DNA of 64,000 nt, from positions 172 to 64,171 of the forward strand of contig CADAGX010000013.1 in the NCBI GenBank assembly GCA_902787575.1, written 5' to 3'. Positions 37,470-49,712 of the stretch are shown here, piece by piece. The notes beneath the pieces are model-generated. The model searched no databases, was not told the origin of the DNA, and was given only the letters and a program-made list of their open reading frames with translations. Source of the stretch: an uncultured Bacteroidales bacterium. GTDB taxonomy: Bacteria; Bacteroidota; Bacteroidia; Bacteroidales; Bacteroidaceae. Numbering within the stretch: the first letter of the stretch is position 1; each line of letters starts with the position of its first letter. The position numbers were made by a program, and so were the translations under genes.

Positions 37470-38519
37470 TTAGTTCTTCATTTCCATCACAAAGTAAGTG
37501 ACCGTCGGCAGATGGTCGCTGAAGCCGTCGAGCCACACACCGCCCGCATGGGTGCGAAGCGGACTTCCTTTGTATTTTCCGTCCTGCTGTATTAGATAGT
37601 CGCGGCGGAAGATATGGTAGTTCCAAAGTTTCAGATGACGGTAATCCTTCTTACCTTTTGCATCTATGAGGTTGCGACTCATCACGATCTGGTCAAAAAG
37701 ATTCCAAGCGCCTTGGAAAGTAAGCGTTCCTTGCCCCTTTGAACGGAGCACATCCCACCAGGGATTATAGAAATCACCATCGCCCACATCTTTCATTTTG
37801 CGCTTCGCACCAAGGTATTTGGCCATAGAAGTATTGTCGGGGTCGTCGTTCATATCGCCCATGACGATGATGCCAGTGTGCTTGTCTGCCCGTCGGATGC
37901 TGTCGGTCAGATGGCGCACCTGCTTGCCTCCCCAGTCGCGAAACTTACCCTCGGCTGCGCGGCTCGGCCAGTGGCACACAATTACCGTAAGCGGGTCGCC
38001 GGCCAGCGTTCCCTGCACCGTGAGGAAGCCACGCGTGGTGTGCTCCGTGTCGCCGTTTTCATAGACATAGGGCTGCAGGAACCACTTCTCGGGCTTAAAA
38101 AAACGTGGGTTGTAAATCAGCGCGCAGTCCACTCCGCGCTTGTCGGGCCCTTCGATGTGAATGTACTTGAAGCCACGCTCTTTCATGGCAGGCTGTGCAA
38201 CCAAGTCGTCCAGCGCGCGGCTGTTTTCAACCTCCGACACGCCTATGATGCTGGCGCCGATGCCGGGCAACTTATCCGTACCCATGTCGAGCAGGACGCG
38301 CGACATGTTGGCCAGCTTGTGTTCGTATCTCAACTTGTTCCATCTGTAGGAACCATCGGGCAGGAAGTCGTAGTCGTTTTTTCCCGCATCGTGCAGCGTG
38401 TCAAACAGATTCTCCAGGTTGTAGAACCCCACAGCATACACGCCATACTGCCGTTGCTGAGCCCGCGCCCAAAAAGCCGCGAGCAAAAGAGCCAGCACGA
38501 AAAAGCCTATTTTCTTCAT
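37470..38519 (-). CDS. Secreted endonuclease/exonuclease/phosphatase (EEP)-family protein
   Basis: Signal peptide MKKIGFFVLALLLAAFWARA at the internal ATG 38519. Has the N.ENLFD start, GDMND and a C-terminal SDHLP motif of the EEP fold. Confidence 0.75.
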   Translation of the reverse strand: MKKIGFFVLALLLAAFWARAQQRQYGVYAVGFYNLENLFDTLHDAGKNDYDFLPDGSYRWNKLRYEHKLANMSRVLLDMGTDKLPGIGASIIGVSEVENSRALDDLVAQPAMKERGFKYIHIEGPDKRGVDCALIYNPRFFKPEKWFLQPYVYENGDTEHTTRGFLTVQGTLAGDPLTVIVCHWPSRAAEGKFRDWGGKQVRHLTDSIRRADKHTGIIVMGDMNDDPDNTSMAKYLGAKRKMKDVGDGDFYNPWWDVLRSKGQGTLTFQGAWNLFDQIVMSRNLIDAKGKKDYRHLKLWNYHIFRRDYLIQQDGKYKGSPLRTHAGGVWLDGFSDHLPTVTYFVMEMKN

Positions 38520-38561
38520 GTCTTTACTTTTAACCTTCAAGTTTTCTCTCCAATTCTTGTG

Positions 38562-38569
38562 CAAAGATA
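38562..38569 (-). promoter_or_regulatory. -7 box (TATCTTTG on minus strand)
   Basis: Lies 42 nt upstream of the EEP ATG at 38519. Confidence 0.4.
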
Positions 38570-38785
38570 GGGCAAATGCACGAAACGGCAAAAGAAAACC
38601 GCAGTTTTTATTCTTTGGCGAGCGAATACTTCTTCGCCTCGTCCTTCGCAATCGGCGGGAGGCTGTGTGCCAAAACCGCTACACGAAGAGTAAGCCCTAA
38701 AGGTCGACGCCCCTCGGAATACATCCCGCTACCAAATACGGCAAAGAAAACTGCACTTTTCTTTTGCCATTTCATGCTTTTCGAT

Positions 38786-38793
38786 TAACTTTG
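38786..38793 (+). promoter_or_regulatory. -7 box (TAACTTTG) with a -33 TTTG at 38763-38766
   Basis: Lies 32 nt upstream of the TonB-dependent transporter ATG at 38826, with a 19-nt spacer between the two elements. Confidence 0.5.
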
Positions 38794-38825
38794 CAGCATA
38801 TAAACTTAATTTAACTACCTTTTAT

Positions 38826-41390
38826 ATGAGAAAAAAGCTATTGCTATGGGCACTGATGAGCATCGCAGCGTCCCAAAGCTACGCCCAGACAGAAACGACG
38901 GAAACGGAGAAAGACCAGAAGCAGGACAATGCTGCCTTCGTTTTCACCGAGTCGCAGCTGGGCGAAGACGATGAGATGACGCAAAACGTCATCATGGTAG
39001 GCTCGAATACCGACGTCTACAAAAGTAATGTGGGCTACCTGTGGAGCCCCGTACGCTTCAAGTTCCGCGCGTACAACAGCCGTTACAACGACATTTACAT
39101 GAATGGCGTGCAAGTAAACAACGCGGAGCACGGACAATTCAACTACTCCACAATCGGCGGAATGAACGATGCAATGCGCAGCATCGACGCCACAAGCCCG
39201 TTTGAGGACAATAGTTTCGCCATGTCCGGCGTGGGCGGGAGCAACAACTACAACCTGCGGGCAAGCAACTACGCAGCCGGCAACAAGATTACGCTCTCGG
39301 GCGCCAACCGCAACTACACGCTGCGCGGCATGTACTCCTTCGGGACAGGCGTGTTGCCAAAGGGATGGGCCGTGTTCGGCACAGTTGGCTACCGCTGGGC
39401 CAACATGCAGACGGCAGCAGTGGAAGGAACGTTCTACAACTCCCTCTCCTACTTCCTCGCCGTTCAGAAGATATTCAACGACCGACACGCGCTGAATCTG
39501 TCCACCTGGGGCAACCCCACGGAGCGCGCACAGCAAGGCGCCTCGACAGACGAAGCCTACTGGCTGGCCAACGACCGCCAGTACAATCCCTACTGGGGCT
39601 ATCAGGACGGCAAGAAGCGCAGCAGCCGCGTGGTGAACAACTACGAGCCGTCGGCCCTCCTCACTTGGGACTACAAAATCAACGACAACATGAAGCTCAC
39701 CACGAGCGCATTTGCCAAGTACGCCATGTATAGCAGCACGAAGCTCAACTACAACGGCACAAATCCCGCGCCCGACTACTGGAAGAACTTCCCGTCGTAC
39801 AACTACGATGTTTGGGGAGAGACGGACGGCACGAACAACAACATCGATGCCTACTGGACGAGCTACAACTTCTGGAAAGGCGGACGCCACAATCGCCAAA
39901 TCAACTTTGACGAGTTGTACTTCGCCAACCGCCAGCTTAACAAGACCGGCACCGACGCTGTGTACTACATTCAGGCAAGACACAACGACCACTTGGCCAC
40001 AAACCTCAGCAGCACTTACAACTGGAACATCGATCGCAGCCGCAAGTTCACAGCTGGCATCCAACTTACCAGCCACAAGGGAATGCACTACCAGACGATG
40101 GAGGACCTGATGGGAGCTGAGAACTTCCACAACGTGAACACCTATGCTATCGGTACGTACCCTGCCAGCGACAACCGCGTGCAGTACGACCTAAACAAAC
40201 CTAACGGCCAAGTTCGTGAAGGCGACCGCTTCGGCTTCGACTACAACATTCTGGTGCAGCGTTTCAACGCATTCGCACAATACTCGCTCGACAAGGGAAT
40301 CGCTCATTCCTTCCTTACCGGAAAGATTGGCGGCGAGCAGATGTGGCGCGATGGCAAGATGCGCAACGGTCTCTGCGCCGACTACAGTTACGGCAAGAGC
40401 GGCAAGGCTCGTTTCCTCGACGGCGGCTTCAAGATGGGAAGCACGCTCAACTTGGGCGCCGGCAATACCATCACGATGGGCGTGGGCTACGAAACACGCG
40501 CTCCGCAAGCCAGCACTGCATTTGTCAGCCCCGAGATGAACAACAACTTCGTGGAGAATCTTAAGAACGAAAAGATGTACTCCGCAGAATTGAGCTACGC
40601 AGTGAACGTAAGCTGGCTGCAACTGAACCTGAACGGTTACTTCAGCCACACGTACGAAGGCACGGAATGGCAAAACTACTACGATGACAACGAAAACAGC
40701 TTCACATACGTGAGCATGACAGGCGTTGAGAAGAATTACTACGGTGCAGAGTTGGGCGCCAAGTTCCGCATCACCAGCAACTTCAGTGTGAATCTTATCG
40801 GAACCATCTGCGACGCAAAATACGTGAGCGACACAGATGTCCGCTATATGTTGAGCAACGAGGGCACAATGCAAGCAACGCGCTGCTTCAACAAAGGCAT
40901 GCGCGAAGGCGGCACACCGCTCACAGCCCTGAGCCTCGGCTTGAACTATCGTGTCGGACGCGGCTGGTACTTCAACTTGGCAGGCAACTATTACGACCGC
41001 ATCTACCTCTTCTACACTCCTGTTACACGTTTCGAGAGCACACAGCAGCTGTGGGCCCGAAACAACTACAACGGAGCAACGCTCGACAACGCCACGGGTG
41101 AATACATCTACAACGTTCCCGACCAGGCAAAAGGCAAGGGCGGCTTCATGCTCGACGCCAGCATCGGTCACACATTCTACGTGGCACACCATCCGCTCAA
41201 CGTAAACTTGATGCTCACGAACATCACCAACAATACAAAGATTACCACGGGCGGCTACGAGCAGAGCCGTATGAACTACAGCGTCAGCGACCAGGAAATA
41301 AACACCCGCACGTACAACTTCACTCGCAACCCCAAGAAGTATTACGCACAGGGCATCAACGGAATGCTGAACATCAACTATCGTTTCTAA
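38826..41390 (+). CDS. TonB-dependent outer-membrane transporter (no SusD partner)
   Basis: Signal peptide, a plug-like N-terminus (NV..VGS...Y.....L.S..RF..R), a long Tyr/Asn/Gly-rich beta-barrel and a terminal aromatic residue (...NINYRF). Confidence 0.8.
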   Translation: MRKKLLLWALMSIAASQSYAQTETTETEKDQKQDNAAFVFTESQLGEDDEMTQNVIMVGSNTDVYKSNVGYLWSPVRFKFRAYNSRYNDIYMNGVQVNNAEHGQFNYSTIGGMNDAMRSIDATSPFEDNSFAMSGVGGSNNYNLRASNYAAGNKITLSGANRNYTLRGMYSFGTGVLPKGWAVFGTVGYRWANMQTAAVEGTFYNSLSYFLAVQKIFNDRHALNLSTWGNPTERAQQGASTDEAYWLANDRQYNPYWGYQDGKKRSSRVVNNYEPSALLTWDYKINDNMKLTTSAFAKYAMYSSTKLNYNGTNPAPDYWKNFPSYNYDVWGETDGTNNNIDAYWTSYNFWKGGRHNRQINFDELYFANRQLNKTGTDAVYYIQARHNDHLATNLSSTYNWNIDRSRKFTAGIQLTSHKGMHYQTMEDLMGAENFHNVNTYAIGTYPASDNRVQYDLNKPNGQVREGDRFGFDYNILVQRFNAFAQYSLDKGIAHSFLTGKIGGEQMWRDGKMRNGLCADYSYGKSGKARFLDGGFKMGSTLNLGAGNTITMGVGYETRAPQASTAFVSPEMNNNFVENLKNEKMYSAELSYAVNVSWLQLNLNGYFSHTYEGTEWQNYYDDNENSFTYVSMTGVEKNYYGAELGAKFRITSNFSVNLIGTICDAKYVSDTDVRYMLSNEGTMQATRCFNKGMREGGTPLTALSLGLNYRVGRGWYFNLAGNYYDRIYLFYTPVTRFESTQQLWARNNYNGATLDNATGEYIYNVPDQAKGKGGFMLDASIGHTFYVAHHPLNVNLMLTNITNNTKITTGGYEQSRMNYSVSDQEINTRTYNFTRNPKKYYAQGINGMLNINYRF

Positions 41391-41426
41391 CAGGACACCT
41401 TATATAATTATAAAGACACAAACATT

Positions 41427-42254
41427 ATGAAGAAGATATTGATGACAATTGCTTTTGGAAGCCTTGTAATGGCTGGCTGCATGGACGGCGATTGGGACGT
41501 GCCGCAGTCCATCCAAGACAATCCTCCCTACGGCAACAACACGATAGAGAAGTACGAAGCGGCCAAGGTGATGACCATCGCTCAGCTGAAGACGGCTAAC
41601 AAGTCGGCCATCGAAGGCAACAGCGTGGCTGAAATCACAGACGATGTGCAGCTGCAAGTGGTGGTTAACGGCAACGACGCCGGCGGCAACCTTTACAAAC
41701 AAGTATCCGTACAGGACGAGACAGGCGGCATCATCATTGGCATCAACGCCACCGACCAAGCCGCTTTCCTGCCCGTAGGCCAGAAACTCCTCATCAACCT
41801 GAAGGGTCTCTGCATTGGCGGCTACGGAAAGCAGCCCCAACTGGGCTCGCTCTACAACGGCGGCATCGGCCGCATGGAACTCGAGACGTGGAAGCAGCAT
41901 GTGCGGCTCGTAAAGGACGATGTGGTGGCAGCCAAGGCAGACACCATCGATTTCAACCCGAGCGCTGACGTGATGACACAGACGGGACGCATCGTTCGCA
42001 TTTCTCCGGCCACCATCACGGGCGAAGGCACACAGACGCTGGCTCCCGAAGACGGCTCCGTTCGTCTGACCAACAACTGCGCCAACCGCACCATCAACGG
42101 CAACTCGAAAGTGGTGCTGCGCACCAGTTCCTACAGCGACTTCGCATCCCTGCCCATCCCCACCGGTCCCGTAGACGTTTATGGCGTTTGCACCACCTTC
42201 AACGGCACGTGGCAGATACTCATGCGCACCGAGACAGACCTTAAATCAGAATAA
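41427..42254 (+). CDS. Surface lipoprotein with an OB-fold-like domain (DUF5689-like)
   Basis: Lipobox MAGC. The segment VQLQVVVNGNDAGGNLYKQVSVQDETGGIIIG...GQKLLINLKGL.IG.YG resembles DUF5689 / tRNA_anti-like OB folds. Confidence 0.55.
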   Translation: MKKILMTIAFGSLVMAGCMDGDWDVPQSIQDNPPYGNNTIEKYEAAKVMTIAQLKTANKSAIEGNSVAEITDDVQLQVVVNGNDAGGNLYKQVSVQDETGGIIIGINATDQAAFLPVGQKLLINLKGLCIGGYGKQPQLGSLYNGGIGRMELETWKQHVRLVKDDVVAAKADTIDFNPSADVMTQTGRIVRISPATITGEGTQTLAPEDGSVRLTNNCANRTINGNSKVVLRTSSYSDFASLPIPTGPVDVYGVCTTFNGTWQILMRTETDLKSE

Positions 42255-42278
42255 CAAACAATAAAACATACACACAAA

Positions 42279-44375
42279 ATGAAAAAGATTCTCAAGACAT
42301 TGGCACTTGCCACATTGGGCATTTTCGCTCTGGCAAGTTGCGAAGACGTGCCCGCACCCTACGTCGTTCCGGGAAGTGGGAACGGCAGCAATGGAACTCC
42401 CAATGCTGACTACATCATCAATCAGACTTTCTCCTCCAGCCTCGGTACATTCCAGTCCGAAAGCGAAAGCGGTCAGATTGCATGGAAAGGTGACAGCCGT
42501 TATGGCGCAGTCGTTAGCGGATACGACGACTGGGACGGCAGCGGAACCAAGACAAACCAAGCTGGCGTAACTTATCTCGTCAGCCCGGAAATTGACCTGA
42601 CCGACGTAGACAGCGCATACGTCACCATCGAGCAGGCCATCAACTACGCCAAAAGCACATTGGCCGAAGACAACAAACTGATGATTCGTGTAGGCAATGG
42701 CGAATGGGTCGAACTCCCAATGAACTACAACGGACTGGGCTCCTCGTTTACTTACACAACACAGGACATCCAGATTCCGCAGGAATACATGGGCAAGAAA
42801 GTGCAGTTGGGTCTGAAGCACACGGCACACGACACTTACTCTTCCACATGGGAAGTAAAGAGCCTCAGCGTTTCCAAGGGACAGGCTCCCGTTGAAGAAG
42901 CACCGACGGGCAAGGAAGTGACTTGCGCCGAGGCTGTTGAACTGACCAACGCACTGGCCGATGGAGCTACTTCCACCGAGACCTATACCGTAACAGGTTA
43001 CATCACAGAAGTTGTGGGTGCTGTGAGCAACAACCAGCAGACCTTCTGGATGGCCGATGCAAAGGGTGGCGGCCGAGTATTCGAGGCATACTATGCAAAC
43101 CTGCCCGAAGGTGTAACAGAATTCAAGGCTGGCGCCAAGGTGAAAATCACAGGCAGCCTTACGAAGTACGTCAATAAGAATAGCGGTCAGGTAACTGCCG
43201 AAATCAAGAACGCCACAGTAGAAATCCTCGAAGATGGCGAAGGAGGCGAGACACCTGCGGGCACAGAAGTGACGTGTGCACAGGCCGTAGAACTGACCAA
43301 TGCATTGGAAGACGGCGCTACTTCGGCAGAAGTTTACAGCGTAACGGGTTACATCACCGAAGTTGTCGGCAACGTAAGCAAGAATCAGCAGACCTTCTGG
43401 ATGGCCGACACCAAGGACGGTGGCAAAGTCTTCGAAGCATTCTACGCAAATCTGCCCGAAGGAGTCACAGAATTCAAGGCTGGAATGAAAGTTAAGATTA
43501 CCGGCAACCTGATGAAGTTCGTCAAGAACGAGCAGGTTACGCCCGAGATTAAAAACGCCACTGTAGAGATTCTCGAAAACGGAGGCGACACGCCAACTCC
43601 CACCATTGAGGGCGGCACGATAGAAGACCCCTATACCGTAGAGGAAGCGCTGCAAATCATAAATGATGGCACGTACACAAGTGCAAAAGTGTATGTTACA
43701 GGCAAGATTTCGGAGATAAAAGAAATCAATACCGAGTATGGCAATGCGACTTACTTCATTTCAGACGACGGCACCAAAACTACACAACTGCAAGTTTTCC
43801 GCGGAACGAGCTTGGGCGGCGAGAAGTTCCAAGAGACAGACGAACTGGCGGTAGGCGATAAAGTTACCGTGTATGGAATACTTACGATGTACCAAAATAC
43901 TACGCCCGAAATTACAGGAAGCCAGCTATACGAGCTCAATGGAGAGATTGCAGGTGGAGGAAATGGTGGCAACGGAGGTAACGACGGAGACGCCACGTCA
44001 ATCACTTTCTCCGACAAGGGTTACACGAATGCACAGGACTTTGAAGGAAAAGATATTACCGTAGGAGAAGCCAAACTTACATGGTCTAAAGGAACTGGTA
44101 GCACCACTCCGAAATACTACGATACTGGTGCTGCAATGCGTCTGTACGGAGGCAACACGCTGACTATCTCGTCCAGCAAGAGTATTTCCAAAGTCGTCTT
44201 CACCTACAACGGCGCTGACTATACTCCCACTTCGGAGAGTGCTACCGCAACTCCTGGCTCGTACGATTTCAGCACACACACTTGGACAGGCAATGCCACA
44301 AGTGTGGTATTGAAGAACACGGCCAGCAAGGGACACTTCCGCATTGTTAGCGTAAGCATCACCTACGCCGAGTAA
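42279..44375 (+). CDS. Large surface lipoprotein: choice-of-anchor-J-like N-domain plus three tandem OB-fold (DUF6359-like) modules plus a C-terminal domain
   Basis: Lipobox LASC. The N-domain resembles the module in the Endonuclease I gene (..YLVSPEIDL..). It has two ~117-aa near-identical repeats and a third divergent copy (DPYTVEEAL...VYVTGKISEI...). Confidence 0.6.
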   Translation: MKKILKTLALATLGIFALASCEDVPAPYVVPGSGNGSNGTPNADYIINQTFSSSLGTFQSESESGQIAWKGDSRYGAVVSGYDDWDGSGTKTNQAGVTYLVSPEIDLTDVDSAYVTIEQAINYAKSTLAEDNKLMIRVGNGEWVELPMNYNGLGSSFTYTTQDIQIPQEYMGKKVQLGLKHTAHDTYSSTWEVKSLSVSKGQAPVEEAPTGKEVTCAEAVELTNALADGATSTETYTVTGYITEVVGAVSNNQQTFWMADAKGGGRVFEAYYANLPEGVTEFKAGAKVKITGSLTKYVNKNSGQVTAEIKNATVEILEDGEGGETPAGTEVTCAQAVELTNALEDGATSAEVYSVTGYITEVVGNVSKNQQTFWMADTKDGGKVFEAFYANLPEGVTEFKAGMKVKITGNLMKFVKNEQVTPEIKNATVEILENGGDTPTPTIEGGTIEDPYTVEEALQIINDGTYTSAKVYVTGKISEIKEINTEYGNATYFISDDGTKTTQLQVFRGTSLGGEKFQETDELAVGDKVTVYGILTMYQNTTPEITGSQLYELNGEIAGGGNGGNGGNDGDATSITFSDKGYTNAQDFEGKDITVGEAKLTWSKGTGSTTPKYYDTGAAMRLYGGNTLTISSSKSISKVVFTYNGADYTPTSESATATPGSYDFSTHTWTGNATSVVLKNTASKGHFRIVSVSITYAE
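42915..43590 (+). repeat. In-frame tandem duplication (2 x ~351 bp) inside the lipoprotein gene
   Basis: GAAGTGAC(T/G)TG(C/T)GC... restarts at 42915 and 43266. By eye the translated units are about four-fifths identical. Confidence 0.85.
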
Positions 44376-44462
44376 TCAAAAATGCGACGCGTCGTTCTGC
44401 TTGATGCGACGCGTCGCAAACGCTCAAGGCACGCGTCGCATCGGACACAGCGACGCGTGCCT
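44376..44462. repeat. Array E of the repeat family (4 ACGCGT cores exactly 22 bp apart)
   Basis: ACGCGT occurs at 44386, 44408, 44430 and 44452. Confidence 0.85.
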
Positions 44463-44468
44463 TTTTTA
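44425..44468 (+). terminator. Rho-independent terminator built from two inverted repeat units
   Basis: AAGGCACGCGTCGC, a 10-nt loop, then GCGACGCGTGCCTT, followed by TTTTAT. Confidence 0.65.
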
Positions 44469-44520
44469 TGCACCACAGCGATTTTTTTCAAAAAGGTTTG
44501 GTGGAAAGGAGAAAAACACG

Positions 44521-44528
44521 TATCTTTG
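44521..44528 (+). promoter_or_regulatory. -7 box (TATCTTTG)
   Basis: Lies 87 nt upstream of the rpmE2 ATG. Confidence 0.4.
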
Positions 44529-44615
44529 CACGCCGAATTGAATAAATTCAGACCATTACACATATAGTTACCAGCTATACGAAACCAAAGAATATAATTA
44601 AAACAAGCAAAAGAT

Positions 44616-44867
44616 ATGAAACAAGGAATCCATCCCGAGAACTACCGCCCGGTAGTATTCAAGGACATGAGCAACGGCGACATGTTCCTGAGCCGTTCCA
44701 CTTGCAAGACGACTGAGACCATCGAGTTCGAGGGCGAAACGTATCCCCTCGTGAAGCTGGAAATCTCCAGCACCTCGCACCCCTTCTATACGGGTAAGAG
44801 CAAACTGGTGGACACCGCCGGTCGCGTGGACAAGTTCATGAGTCGCTACGCCCGCAGCAAGAAGTAA
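44616..44867 (+). CDS. rpmE2: 50S ribosomal protein L31, type B (no CxxC zinc ribbon)
   Basis: [10 protein letters not shown]...HPFYTGK. It has only one Cys. Confidence 0.9.
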
Positions 44868-44891
44868 ACTTTGGGGCTCAACGCATCACAC

Positions 44892-44945
44892 AGCCCTCTC
44901 CTGCCATCCCACACTTGGGAAACCGACGGAGAGGGCTTTTATTTT
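44892..44945 (+). terminator. Terminator-like hairpin between rpmE2 and the nuclease gene
   Basis: AGCCCTCTCC (44892-44901) pairs with GGAGAGGGCT (44928-44937), followed by TTTTATTTT. The 26-nt loop contains an inner TCCCA/TGGGA hairpin. Confidence 0.5.
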
Positions 44946-44951
44946 CTCCGC

Positions 44952-45884
44952 ATGAAAACAAGAATCCTCACCGCACTCCTGCTCGGCGTCCTCGTCTGGA
45001 CGTCTTGCGGCGACGACCTACCCTCGCCGGCACCCACGCCACAGGAGAAAACAGACAACGCAAACGCGAACACGCTCTTCAAGAACTACTCGCGTCGCAT
45101 GGAGATGCCGCACCTCATAGGTGGGCCGATGGACCTCTTCCGCGTGAAAACCGTATCGGAGTTCGGTGTAAACTTCAGTTACGAGTTCAGTTGCGAAAAG
45201 CGTGCCACGTACTGGATTGCCTACCGCTGGGACATAGACAACACGGCAGACAACAACATCGGACGCAGCGAACAGTGGGACGAAGATACTGAGTTGCCCG
45301 ACCAGTACCGCGTGACGACCTACATGCACAGCAGCAACGGATACGACCGCGGCCACATGCTGGCCAGCGAAGACAGGCAGAACTCGTGGGAGGCTAACGC
45401 GCAAACTTTCCTGATGAGCAACATGCATCCGCAGTACAACCGCTTCAACGGTCAGGACTACGTGTGGTACAACATGGAGATTCGCGTCCGCCAGTTCTAC
45501 GCCAACTGGACGCGCAAGGCAAATGCAGAGGACACCATCTACGCAGTGAAGGGCGGCACCATCGGCACCGAAGGCGGCAGCATTGCGGCGAAGGACCAGA
45601 TTATCGAAGTGACGCCCAAGGGCCTCATCGTGCCGAAATACTTCTACATGGCTTTCCTCTACAAAAACAAGCAGGCCAGCCAAGGCGGCTACAAGGCCAT
45701 CGCCTTCTGGGTAGAACACACAAATGGCGTGGACCGCACGAAGGGCAACGAGCTGAAGAAGTACGCCATCAGCATCGACGAGCTGGAGCGCCGCACGGGC
45801 ATCGACTTCTTCTGCAATCTGCCCGACGACATCGAAAACGTGGTGGAAGCCAACGCCGTGCCTGCGGCGTGGGGCTTCAACTAA
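44952..45884 (+). CDS. DNA/RNA non-specific endonuclease (beta-beta-alpha-Me, NucA/Serratia family) lipoprotein
   Basis: Lipobox WTSC. Has the YDRGHMLASEDR active-site motif and SNMHPQ...FN. Confidence 0.85.
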   Translation: MKTRILTALLLGVLVWTSCGDDLPSPAPTPQEKTDNANANTLFKNYSRRMEMPHLIGGPMDLFRVKTVSEFGVNFSYEFSCEKRATYWIAYRWDIDNTADNNIGRSEQWDEDTELPDQYRVTTYMHSSNGYDRGHMLASEDRQNSWEANAQTFLMSNMHPQYNRFNGQDYVWYNMEIRVRQFYANWTRKANAEDTIYAVKGGTIGTEGGSIAAKDQIIEVTPKGLIVPKYFYMAFLYKNKQASQGGYKAIAFWVEHTNGVDRTKGNELKKYAISIDELERRTGIDFFCNLPDDIENVVEANAVPAAWGFN

Positions 45885-47467: not shown

Positions 47468-48222
47468 GCGAGGGCCTCCTTATCGTATCGAACGTCCACG
47501 AGGAAAAGTCCACAGGCAGGCGCACTGCTGCTTGCCAGCGAACGGTCTTGACGTTCTATCACACGCCTGAAATCGGCAACCGACATGCGCCCTCGCCCTA
47601 CATCCACCAGCGTGCCGACAATGGCACGCACCATGTTGCGCAGGAAGCGGTTGGCCGTAATGGTGAAGCGCCAGCAGCCAGGCTCTGTCTCGTCCCAGTG
47701 TGCCTCGGAAACGGTGCAAAGATTCGTCTTCACGTCCTCGCTGATTTTGCTGAAGCTCGTGAAGTCGGTGTACTCGAGCAGCGTGGCTGCCGCCTCGTTC
47801 ATGCGCTGGAAGTCCAGATTGGCGAAGCACTTCCAGCTGTAGCTGCGGCGGAAGGGGTCCTTGGCGAGGTGCAGAAAATAGTGATACGTACGGCTCGTGG
47901 CGCTGAATCGCGCGTGCATATCGGAGGCGACAGGTTCGATGCGGTGCACCACCACGTCGGGCGGCAATAGTTTGTTGAGTTTATAGACAAGCTGCGGCGC
48001 ATCGAACGGCTCCGGCCAGTCGAAGTGCGCCACCATCAGGCGGGCATGCACACCGGCATCGGTGCGTCCCGCTCCCACGATGTCCATTTCAGGCGCACGC
48101 AGAAGCAGGGCCAAATTGCGCTGCAGGACTTCCTGCACCGACAGTCCGTTGGGTTGTATCTGCCAGCCGTGATAGAGAGTCCCGTCGTATGAAAGGTAGA
48201 TAAAATATCGCACAGCCGTCAC
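47458..48222 (-). CDS. truA: tRNA pseudouridine(38-40) synthase
   Basis: YDGT.YHGWQ.Q, GAGRTDAGVHA and RSF..HQIR-like (NRFLRNMVR) motifs. Confidence 0.95.
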   Translation of the reverse strand: MTAVRYFIYLSYDGTLYHGWQIQPNGLSVQEVLQRNLALLLRAPEMDIVGAGRTDAGVHARLMVAHFDWPEPFDAPQLVYKLNKLLPPDVVVHRIEPVASDMHARFSATSRTYHYFLHLAKDPFRRSYSWKCFANLDFQRMNEAAATLLEYTDFTSFSKISEDVKTNLCTVSEAHWDETEPGCWRFTITANRFLRNMVRAIVGTLVDVGRGRMSVADFRRVIERQDRSLASSSAPACGLFLVDVRYDKEALACG

Positions 48223-49712
48223 TTTACATAAACCTTGGATGTCCGACTGCCGCGCCGTACGACGTAGACTCCGTGGGTCGGCCGTTCTATACGGCGGCCC
48301 GAGAGGTCAAACACCACGTCGGGCGCATCCTCTGTCGGCACCTCGATGCCCGTGACGTCCGTCTCAGCCTGCAGCGTGAGTTTGCGCATCTCCCACGCCC
48401 AGCAGTGGCTGGCATCCGACTGATAGCGGAAGGCCAAACGTATCTTCTCGCCTGCGTAATCGTTCAGGCTATAGTCGCTCACAGAGACATACGGCGTGAA
48501 GTTGCCCGATGTCGGTGCGCCCGGGAATGTAACGTCCAGTTCGTCCCAGTTGGCGGCACTCGGCACTCCCTCGTAATCCGTGCTTACATAGACCTGGAAC
48601 TGCTCGCGCACATTGTTCGTACCATGATAGCCGGCAGCGTGCTCGAAGCTCAGACGGATATTCTTCAAGTTCGCCAGATCCACCTCGGGCGAGATGAGCC
48701 AGTCGTCGGCCACCTTACCTTTGGAGTAAGCATTGGCCGTGGCTCCATAAGAGCCGTTGGCAGCCCACATGGTGCTGGGCTCACCGGCAGACGTCACACA
48801 CGTGAAGGTGCCCAAATCCGTGAGGAACGACTCGTCGAGCAGCATCACGTCTTCGCCGTCCTCCGTGCCGCCACCGCCACCAGTCTGACTTCCCGTCACA
48901 GAGAACGCGTATTCGATGCTGTCGCCCCAAATATATTCGGCCAGGTTCGGGAAATCCACAAAAGGATTCCTGTTGCCCTGAATCTTATACACCGCCTCGT
49001 TGCGAGCCACCTCTATTGCGTCCACCGGGTCCTTACGGCTCCAGTTCAGCAGCAGTTTGTAAGCCCACTGCTGCAGGGTCGGCCAGTCGTCGTTCTCCAA
49101 CATATCGAGGCCGGCACTCGTCCATGTGAGGTTGCTGTAGGTCGTAACCATGTAGAAATAGCTGCGGGCGAAATCGCCTTTCCACTCGTCGGCCGGCTCC
49201 CACAAAGAACACATCTGCCCCGACGAGGTTTCTCCCCTGCCGACTTTCGTACAGCCGTTATTCGTCGAGACAGACGACACCACGCCCATCGCATAGTTAC
49301 TCTTGCTCGAGTTAATTTTCTGCTCGCAGGGCATCAGGTTGAAAAGGTCTTTGTACGCCTGATTGTTGGAGCCGCCCCACCAACTCTTGGGAAATGAATG
49401 CTCAATGTTCATGCCGCTGACGGCCGAACCGACGTTCCCTCCGAAGTAAAACACCTCGTAGCTGTAACGGTCGCGCACTCGGTCGTTCTCCATGCGGTCT
49501 GTCTTATAGAACCCGCTCCACGTGCTCTCGGCGCCACTACCGTATGACAGCACTTTTGCCTCGCTCACGATGGCCTTCATCGCCAGTTTCAAAGCCGATT
49601 TCTTCTTCCCGTCCGCATTTTTGTAGTAGCCCTCGGGCACTCCGGCTGCAGCCTCCACTGCAAACCCGACAAACAGCATCAGAAAAAGTATGCTATAAAA
49701 TCCTTTCTTCAT
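48219..49712 (-). CDS. Endonuclease I-family extracellular nuclease with a choice-of-anchor-J-like module and a T9SS C-terminal sorting domain
   Basis: NIEHSFPKSWWGG, NLMP, WEPADEWKGDFARSYFYM and GNRNPFVD motifs. The middle has ADDWLISPEVDL. The C-terminus ...GVYVVRRGSRTSKVYVK is typical of a T9SS CTD. Confidence 0.85.
   Translation of the reverse strand: MKKGFYSILFLMLFVGFAVEAAAGVPEGYYKNADGKKKSALKLAMKAIVSEAKVLSYGSGAESTWSGFYKTDRMENDRVRDRYSYEVFYFGGNVGSAVSGMNIEHSFPKSWWGGSNNQAYKDLFNLMPCEQKINSSKSNYAMGVVSSVSTNNGCTKVGRGETSSGQMCSLWEPADEWKGDFARSYFYMVTTYSNLTWTSAGLDMLENDDWPTLQQWAYKLLLNWSRKDPVDAIEVARNEAVYKIQGNRNPFVDFPNLAEYIWGDSIEYAFSVTGSQTGGGGGTEDGEDVMLLDESFLTDLGTFTCVTSAGEPSTMWAANGSYGATANAYSKGKVADDWLISPEVDLANLKNIRLSFEHAAGYHGTNNVREQFQVYVSTDYEGVPSAANWDELDVTFPGAPTSGNFTPYVSVSDYSLNDYAGEKIRLAFRYQSDASHCWAWEMRKLTLQAETDVTGIEVPTEDAPDVVFDLSGRRIERPTHGVYVVRRGSRTSKVYVK

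Follow-up and report, generated by a model that had tools for sequence, protein, structure and literature searches.

What does a cluster of genes that combines a putative outer-membrane transporter with surface lipoproteins and nucleases do, and has such a system been seen before? The cluster lies at positions 37470-45884 of a 64,000-nucleotide stretch of DNA, hereafter the window, from an uncultured Bacteroidales bacterium of the Bacteroidaceae (GenBank assembly GCA_902787575.1, contig CADAGX010000013.1, positions 172 to 64,171 of the forward strand). An initial annotation, made from the sequence without database searches, described a SusD-less TonB-dependent transporter (TBDT) and OB-fold lipoproteins among secreted nucleases. 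It proposed that nucleic acid is bound at the cell surface, degraded and imported, and it knew of no experimental description of such a system. All open reading frames that it named are present where it placed them. We assigned domains to the window proteins with Pfam and NCBIfam searches, modelled two of the proteins with AlphaFold2, and examined the gene neighbourhood of related transporters.

The system has already been described, and the window locus is a new example of it from a gut or rumen Bacteroidales. We consider it very likely that the cluster is a DNA-utilization locus of the ddb type, resembling a polysaccharide utilization locus (PUL) but acting on nucleic acid. The scheme of the initial annotation, in which surface binding and nuclease cleavage precede import through a SusD-less TBDT with a DUF5689 partner, equals the published ddbABCDEF model. 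Its view that nothing of the sort had been reported is outdated (PNAS 2025; PNAS 2022; Front Microbiol 2021), and the locus reveals no new kind of system.

A candidate locus of the ddb type

The ddbABCDEF genes of Bacteroides thetaiotaomicron were presented first on bioRxiv in March 2025 and then in PNAS in September 2025 (Sharan et al., PNAS 2025; PMC12478041). Three of the products, DdbA, DdbB and DdbF, have nuclease activity, DdbC is a TBDT, DdbD is a DUF5689 protein, and DdbE is an accessory protein exported by the signal peptidase II (SPII) route. In culture and in gnotobiotic mice alike, a strain deleted for the locus no longer depletes exogenous DNA or forms uracil and xanthine from it, and the authors explicitly liken the locus to PULs (PMC12478041). 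By analogy with these homologues, for which nuclease activity, the need of the locus for DNA depletion and the nucleobase output have been shown, the window proteins may act in the same way.

The window contains a DdbC-family homologue, recognised through indirect homology, and an adjacent DUF5689 gene. It also encodes predicted secreted nucleases of both the signal peptidase I (SPI) and the SPII type. The SPI-type enzyme belongs to the endonuclease/exonuclease/phosphatase (EEP) fold, is transcribed divergently from the transporter (37470-38519, minus strand) and occupies a DdbB-like position. It matches PF19580 (Exo_endo_phos_3) at 5e-89 and is 40-54% identical to the EEP proteins of Segatella, Elizabethkingia, Bacteroides-group and Phocaeicola loci. 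Its signal peptide, MKKIGFFVLALLLAAFWARA, was read from the translation and has no lipobox cysteine, which fits a secreted or periplasmic enzyme and agrees with the secreted EEP-fold protein initially proposed. The SPII-type enzyme is a NucA-type DNA/RNA non-specific endonuclease (44952-45884, plus strand) that matches PF01223 (Endonuclease_NS) at 1.5e-36. As first annotated, its DRGH active-site motif is visible in the translation and it is a predicted lipoprotein, with a lipobox and a CGDD lipoprotein export signal.

Conservation of the gene neighbourhood

Linkage was assessed by phmmer searches with the window proteins against 80 loci from species-representative genomes of Bacteroidales, Sphingobacteriales, Chitinophagales and Elizabethkingia. 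A DUF5689 gene lay at most 1.8 kb downstream of the transporter, on the same strand, in 73 of the 75 loci with enough downstream sequence. Of the 50 loci with full flanks, 41 had an EEP gene. Their positions were tightly confined: 57 of 58 EEP matches fell less than 3 kb from the transporter, none fell in the flank from -10 to -3 kb, and one lay beyond 6 kb. NucA-family genes occurred at 15 of the 80 loci and Endonuclease I nuclease domains at a few. The initial annotation had made co-occurrence of the transporter with DUF5689 proteins and nucleases in other genomes a test of its reading, and for the DUF5689 and EEP genes that co-occurrence was found.

The full order of the window, EEP< TBDT> DUF5689> OB-lipoprotein> L31> NucA> (arrowheads give gene direction; L31 is a ribosomal protein gene), is repeated in an uncultured Prevotella (L001) and in Segatella copri HDD05 (L002). 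Four further loci, L003 and L081-L083, carry the orthologous nuclease directly 3' of the accessory lipoprotein, without L31. Three of these, L081-L083, represent an abundant cluster of 1,821 members with the order EEP< TBDT> DUF5689> lipoprotein> Endonuclease_NS>. Because the nuclease adjoins the accessory lipoprotein in all four, a four-gene operon looks ancestral and L31 appears to be a lineage-specific interruption. A second layout, NucA> (lipoprotein>) TBDT> DUF5689> EEP>, was seen in Elizabethkingia, Sphingobacterium, Porphyromonas bennonis, Phocaeicola and a Bacteroides-named cluster. On a Paludibacteraceae contig (L040, 2857-14059), two tandem EEP< TBDT> DUF5689> modules stand side by side.

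A transporter fold beyond current family models

The 854-aa protein (38826-41390, plus strand), which we regard as DdbC-like, had no Pfam or NCBIfam match up to E=10, with neither PF00593 nor PF07715 recovered, and no match in the PDB by sequence. With 60 diverse homologues as input, AlphaFold2 gave a confident model (pLDDT 87.7, pTM 0.86). Foldseek aligned this model with Fiu (4e-28) and also with PqqU, FecA, FhuA and BtuB, over about 800 columns and with target TM scores of 0.6-0.72. On the strength of these matches to a confident model we identify the protein as a TBDT. The predicted structure thereby confirms the TonB-dependent-transporter fold that had been claimed for it, even without any family match.

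A profile of the transporter family gave only weak matches to classical TBDTs, with OprC at 1.3e-3. Among the homologues, one has a precomputed PF00593 match and another a weak Plug match, and the identical protein MBQ3991890.1 is named 'TonB-dependent receptor' by NCBI. A representative search placed relatives of the transporter in 1,646 clusters at 50% identity, spread across Bacteroidota. The barrel of this family (~1,650 clusters at 50% identity) is covered by no Pfam model. An N-terminal CarboxypepD_reg domain (~75-100 aa) is absent from the window transporter and its close relatives and present on most distant members (P0249-P0390).

A link to Bacteroides runs through the Bacteroides-group cluster P0521, with B. 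acidifaciens WP_175630809.1 and B. congonensis among its members; the window transporter shares 33% identity with it over 824 aa (E 4e-124). Identity is 31% to a Phocaeicola homologue and 33% to an Elizabethkingia homologue, in each case over more than 800 aa. Both the P0521 and the Phocaeicola homologues lie within nuclease/DUF5689/EEP loci, and the locus of the Bacteroides-genus homologue reads Endonuclease_NS / lipoprotein / TBDT / DUF5689 / EEP. The published ddb subtypes number four (Bt1, Bt2, Pv1 and Pv2) and are delimited by more than 50% identity and more than 75% coverage to a reference DdbC (WP_008762511.1, WP_055220680.1, WP_005843284.1 or WP_117829583.1; PMC12478041). Set against the cut-off of more than 50%, identities of 31-33% suggest that the window transporter falls outside the subtypes of the Bacteroides-group and Phocaeicola homologues compared.

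A DUF5689 lipoprotein and a modular OB-fold lipoprotein

The gene that starts 36 bp 3' of the transporter gene (41427-42254, plus strand) encodes a 275-aa protein that matches PF18942 (DUF5689) at 5.9e-56. Its lipobox, read from the translation, is VMAGC. We regard it as DdbD-like and as the presumed substrate-binding partner of the transporter. For the B. thetaiotaomicron proteins, AlphaFold3 predicts a confident DdbC-DdbD interface, and a likeness to the p202 DNA-binding domain was noted (PMC12478041).

The next gene (42279-44375, plus strand) encodes a 698-aa lipoprotein in the DdbE position. Its sole confident Pfam domain is an OB fold (PF01336, aa 471-551, 2.5e-10). The AlphaFold2 model (pLDDT 76.8) resolves five domains: a beta-sandwich resembling the choice-of-anchor J (CoAJ) domain at aa 45-200, OB modules at 212-320, 329-433 and 452-553, and a C-terminal beta-sandwich at 574-698. 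The full-length Foldseek search was swamped by the N-terminal domain, which is MAM/CBM-like, with RPA appearing only at rank 28. That domain matched MAM, CBM and gingipain cleaved-adhesin domains, and it is homologous to the CoAJ domain of a neighbouring Endonuclease I (3e-13). The first two OB modules, R1 and R2, are 80% identical to each other; R2 and the third, OB3 (the PF01336 module), are 32% identical (E 2e-4), and hhalign gave a probability of 100 between the OB modules. The gene contains a 351-bp tandem repeat. We refer to this architecture as CoAJ-(OB)3. The lipoprotein domains had initially been classed as OB folds of the DUF5689/DUF6359 type. DUF5689 was indeed found in the 275-aa protein and OB modules in the 698-aa protein, whereas DUF6359 was not detected among the window proteins with Pfam or NCBIfam.

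The number of OB modules differs between two assemblies of the same organism. In the second assembly (L088) the lipoprotein is 813 aa long, versus 698 aa with two R-type modules and OB3 in the window, and has one extra 345-bp module. The repeat difference spans 42901-43528 of the window and 10550-11545 of L088; the DNA is otherwise 99.9% identical and the flanking proteins are all 100% identical. Either this is true copy-number variation or a tandem repeat has collapsed in one of the assemblies.

Operon structure and neighbouring genes

The transporter, DUF5689 and CoAJ-(OB)3 genes are separated by gaps of 36 and 24 bp. The -33/-7 promoter that the initial annotation placed upstream of them holds as a motif: a Bacteroides-type TTTG-N19-TAACTTTG at 38763-38793 (plus strand), 33 bp 5' of the transporter start codon. 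A second such motif, TTTG ... TAnnTTTG, faces the EEP gene (38562-38592, minus strand), and a third precedes the L31 gene (44497-44528, plus strand). The pattern matched 11 times in the window against 0.64 expected, while a sigma-70 promoter scan returned sites no commoner than in shuffled sequence. Immediately 3' of the 698-aa gene, two GC-rich hairpins (44383-44469, plus strand; -53.8 kcal/mol, z = -7.2), the second with a U6 tail, likely form the intrinsic terminator of the three-gene operon. Both of these long adjacent hairpins (44383-44463) contain GCGACGCGTCG and its complement, and the second alone bears the U-tail.

Beyond the terminator lies a gene for type B ribosomal protein L31 (44616-44867, plus strand; NF002462, 2.7e-38), and a further hairpin with a U-run separates L31 from NucA. 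With these promoter motifs, hairpins and the intervening gene, a three-gene operon is well supported and NucA falls outside its transcript. The nuclease had been described as immediately downstream of the operon; a NucA-type gene is indeed there, but the terminator, L31 with its own promoter motif and the hairpin intervene. A functional tie of L31 to the locus was considered and rejected, as L31 has a housekeeping role and a promoter motif of its own and is absent at this place in L003 and L081-L083.

Farther along, 2.3 kb past NucA and beyond DUF3256, EamA and TruA genes, is an Endonuclease I fused to a CoAJ domain (48219-49712, minus strand; PF04231, 4e-44; NF038128, 2.7e-17). It had been counted as a member of the locus and as exported by the type IX secretion system (T9SS). 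Its identity as Endonuclease I stands, whereas NCBIfam gave no support for a T9SS C-terminal signal. By eye only, its short tail, ...VVFDLSGRRIERPTHGVYVVRRGSRTSKVYVK, is like the last part of a shortened T9SS C-terminal domain. The gene is kept in L088, the 99.9%-identical assembly, and turned up in none of the closest other species (L001-L003) within the ~4-5.6 kb of sequence available beyond NucA. We therefore leave it outside the system as a mere neighbour, its linkage not being conserved outside this organism. The rest of the window holds a capsule or exopolysaccharide cluster and housekeeping genes. The cluster, large and unrelated to the DNA-utilization locus, spans 2620-25878 and contains biosynthesis and export functions: Poly_export/SLBB, a Wzz-GNVR tyrosine kinase, Wzi, several glycosyltransferases, GH26, LicD and a MatE-like flippase.

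Proposed function and its alternatives

A mechanism can be drawn from these observations: the identities of the genes, the fold of the transporter, the presence of OB modules, the classes of signal peptide and the conserved linkage. We think it highly probable that the locus captures and cleaves nucleic acid at the surface, imports oligonucleotides through the transporter and its DUF5689 partner, and digests them with the EEP enzyme in the periplasm. The surface-anchored NucA-type endonuclease would cut extracellular DNA, and probably RNA, while the CoAJ-(OB)3 lipoprotein would hold the polymer at the cell surface. The DUF5689 lipoprotein would sit on the transporter as its substrate-binding partner, in the place that SusD takes elsewhere, and the TBDT would bring oligonucleotides into the periplasm. 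There the SPI-exported EEP nuclease would continue their breakdown ahead of salvage or catabolism. We infer that DUF5689 and the OB modules bind DNA, and we infer likewise the species transported and the dependence of its transport on TonB. The idea, put forward in part by the initial annotation, that the products serve as a source of phosphorus, nitrogen or carbon is weak, since DNA is a poor sole C, N or P source for B. thetaiotaomicron, for which the measured output is uracil and xanthine (PMC12478041).

Several observations weigh against assignment to this type and this mechanism. No canonical TonB box was identified in the 854-aa protein; its N-terminus is conserved and predicted to be disordered (aa 22-60, pLDDT <50), and AAFVFTESQL and QNVIMVG occur there, neither a clear match to the TonB-box consensus. 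DUF5689 showed no sequence-level tie to OB folds or to any solved structure. The initial annotation expected basic grooves, an expectation to which composition lends no support: with pI values of 4.2-4.6 for the OB modules and 4.8 for the DUF5689 protein, all are acidic overall, and simple electrostatic binding of DNA is thus an ill fit. NucA is cut off from the operon by the terminator and L31. Comparisons were made with relatives in Bacteroides-group, Phocaeicola and Elizabethkingia loci, so ddb membership rests on DUF5689, synteny and indirect homology.

The alternative that survives best holds that the transporter and the DUF5689 protein form the outer-membrane uptake step of natural transformation, taking in long DNA for recombination and not for degradation. 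We judge it unlikely. It draws on Riemerella anatipestifer, in which RA0C_RS04915, an outer-membrane protein with CarboxypepD_reg, and RA0C_RS04920, a DUF5689+DUF5017 protein, are required for transformation (Front Microbiol 2021; PMC8459023). The ddb paper describes this pair as homologues of DdbC and DdbD and places a DdbB-homologous nuclease beside it (PMC12478041). The transporter family also includes an Elizabethkingia locus with the order TBDT> DUF5689> EEP> (L053). However, two flanking nucleases would destroy incoming DNA. A module of the Riemerella type was likewise not found in the window: the barrel has no CarboxypepD_reg, the DUF5689 protein is not fused to CoAJ or DUF5017, and the scanned genes of the 64-kb window include no ComEC, DprA or ComEA-like competence genes, a span that cannot exclude them elsewhere in the genome.

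It is very unlikely, in our view, that the nucleases mainly remodel extracellular DNA in the biofilm matrix or in host extracellular traps, with import secondary or absent. A precedent exists in the homologous BT3560-3563 operon of B. thetaiotaomicron, in which the DNase BT3563 breaks down the extracellular DNA of the matrix and bile-dependent biofilms do not form without it (PMC8851478). Remodelling would nevertheless leave the tight joint conservation of transporter, DUF5689 protein and periplasmic-type nuclease unexplained. It also sits poorly with the ddbABCDEF deletion, after which nucleosides are still turned into uracil and xanthine but DNA no longer is; the authors take this to mean that the locus is needed for DNA uptake (PMC12478041). 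Hardly credible is a third possibility, in which the ligand of the transporter and lipoproteins is not nucleic acid but, for instance, a glycan or protein, the modules bind carbohydrate or protein, and the nucleases are chance neighbours: the MAM-, CBM- and cleaved-adhesin-like N-domain, the acidic OB modules and the presence of PF02018 (CBM_4_9) on some homologues would suit it, whereas nuclease linkage far above chance in four orders, the nature of PF01336 as a nucleic-acid-binding OB family, a locus without glycoside hydrolases or SusD, and B. thetaiotaomicron genetics (PMC12478041) speak against it. Utilization of DNA by a ddb-type machinery remains the reading that we prefer.

Comparison with known systems

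The logic of the locus resembles that of SusC/SusD PULs in its surface-binding lipoproteins, its surface and periplasmic hydrolases and its TBDT with a lipoprotein partner. Unlike those systems, it has no SusD fold, SusC-type N-terminal extension or CAZymes, and in structure its transporter best matches classical siderophore and cofactor TBDTs (Fiu, PqqU and FecA), not SusC. The initial annotation was right that the locus lacks a SusC/SusD pair and glycoside hydrolases, as no SusD, SusC N-terminal extension or glycoside hydrolase match was found among the locus proteins with Pfam or NCBIfam.

With the Riemerella pair the locus shares a homologous outer-membrane barrel, a DUF5689 protein and a nuclease neighbour, the last represented by the EEP gene in the Elizabethkingia locus. 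The Riemerella barrel differs in carrying CarboxypepD_reg and its DUF5689 in being fused to DUF5017/CoAJ; in the window, the CoAJ domain sits instead on the gene after DUF5689. The demonstrated function of that pair is transformation, not catabolism. The BT3560-3563 operon, for which synteny is conserved in Prevotella and Alloprevotella among others (Bechon et al., PNAS 2022; PMC8851478), likewise combines a TonB-dependent receptor, a hypothetical protein and lipoprotein nucleases. It differs in having been described as an extracellular DNase and biofilm operon, and its nuclease families may also differ, with EEP given in the figure legends of that paper and a NucA-type lipoprotein nuclease in the window.

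The closest counterpart is ddbABCDEF. Both loci have a SusD-less TBDT followed by a DUF5689 protein, an SPI nuclease, one or more SPII lipoprotein nucleases, an extra SPII accessory protein and a PUL-like logic. They differ in that the accessory protein of the window is CoAJ-(OB)3 and that NucA is split off by L31 and a terminator. The window transporter also lacks the CarboxypepD_reg domain of the Bacteroides-group and Phocaeicola homologues examined. Diversity within the transporter family (~1,650 clusters) could help to explain substrate preference among ddb subtypes, a point left open by the original study (PMC12478041). We find it doubtful that the differences run deeper, in either of two ways. 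The Prevotella/Segatella ddb-type system may have acquired a modular CoAJ-(OB)n lipoprotein, with an OB number varying between near-identical genomes, in which case the choice between ssDNA or RNA and dsDNA as the captured nucleic acid could lie with CoAJ-(OB)n and not with DUF5689; or the same machinery may be an unrecognised natural DNA uptake route in rumen and gut Bacteroidales. What the locus adds is that the recently described DNA-utilization machinery of Bacteroidales reaches Prevotella-like rumen and gut lineages, in a form that differs by its transporter without an N-terminal extension, its multi-OB accessory lipoprotein and its NucA-type surface nuclease.

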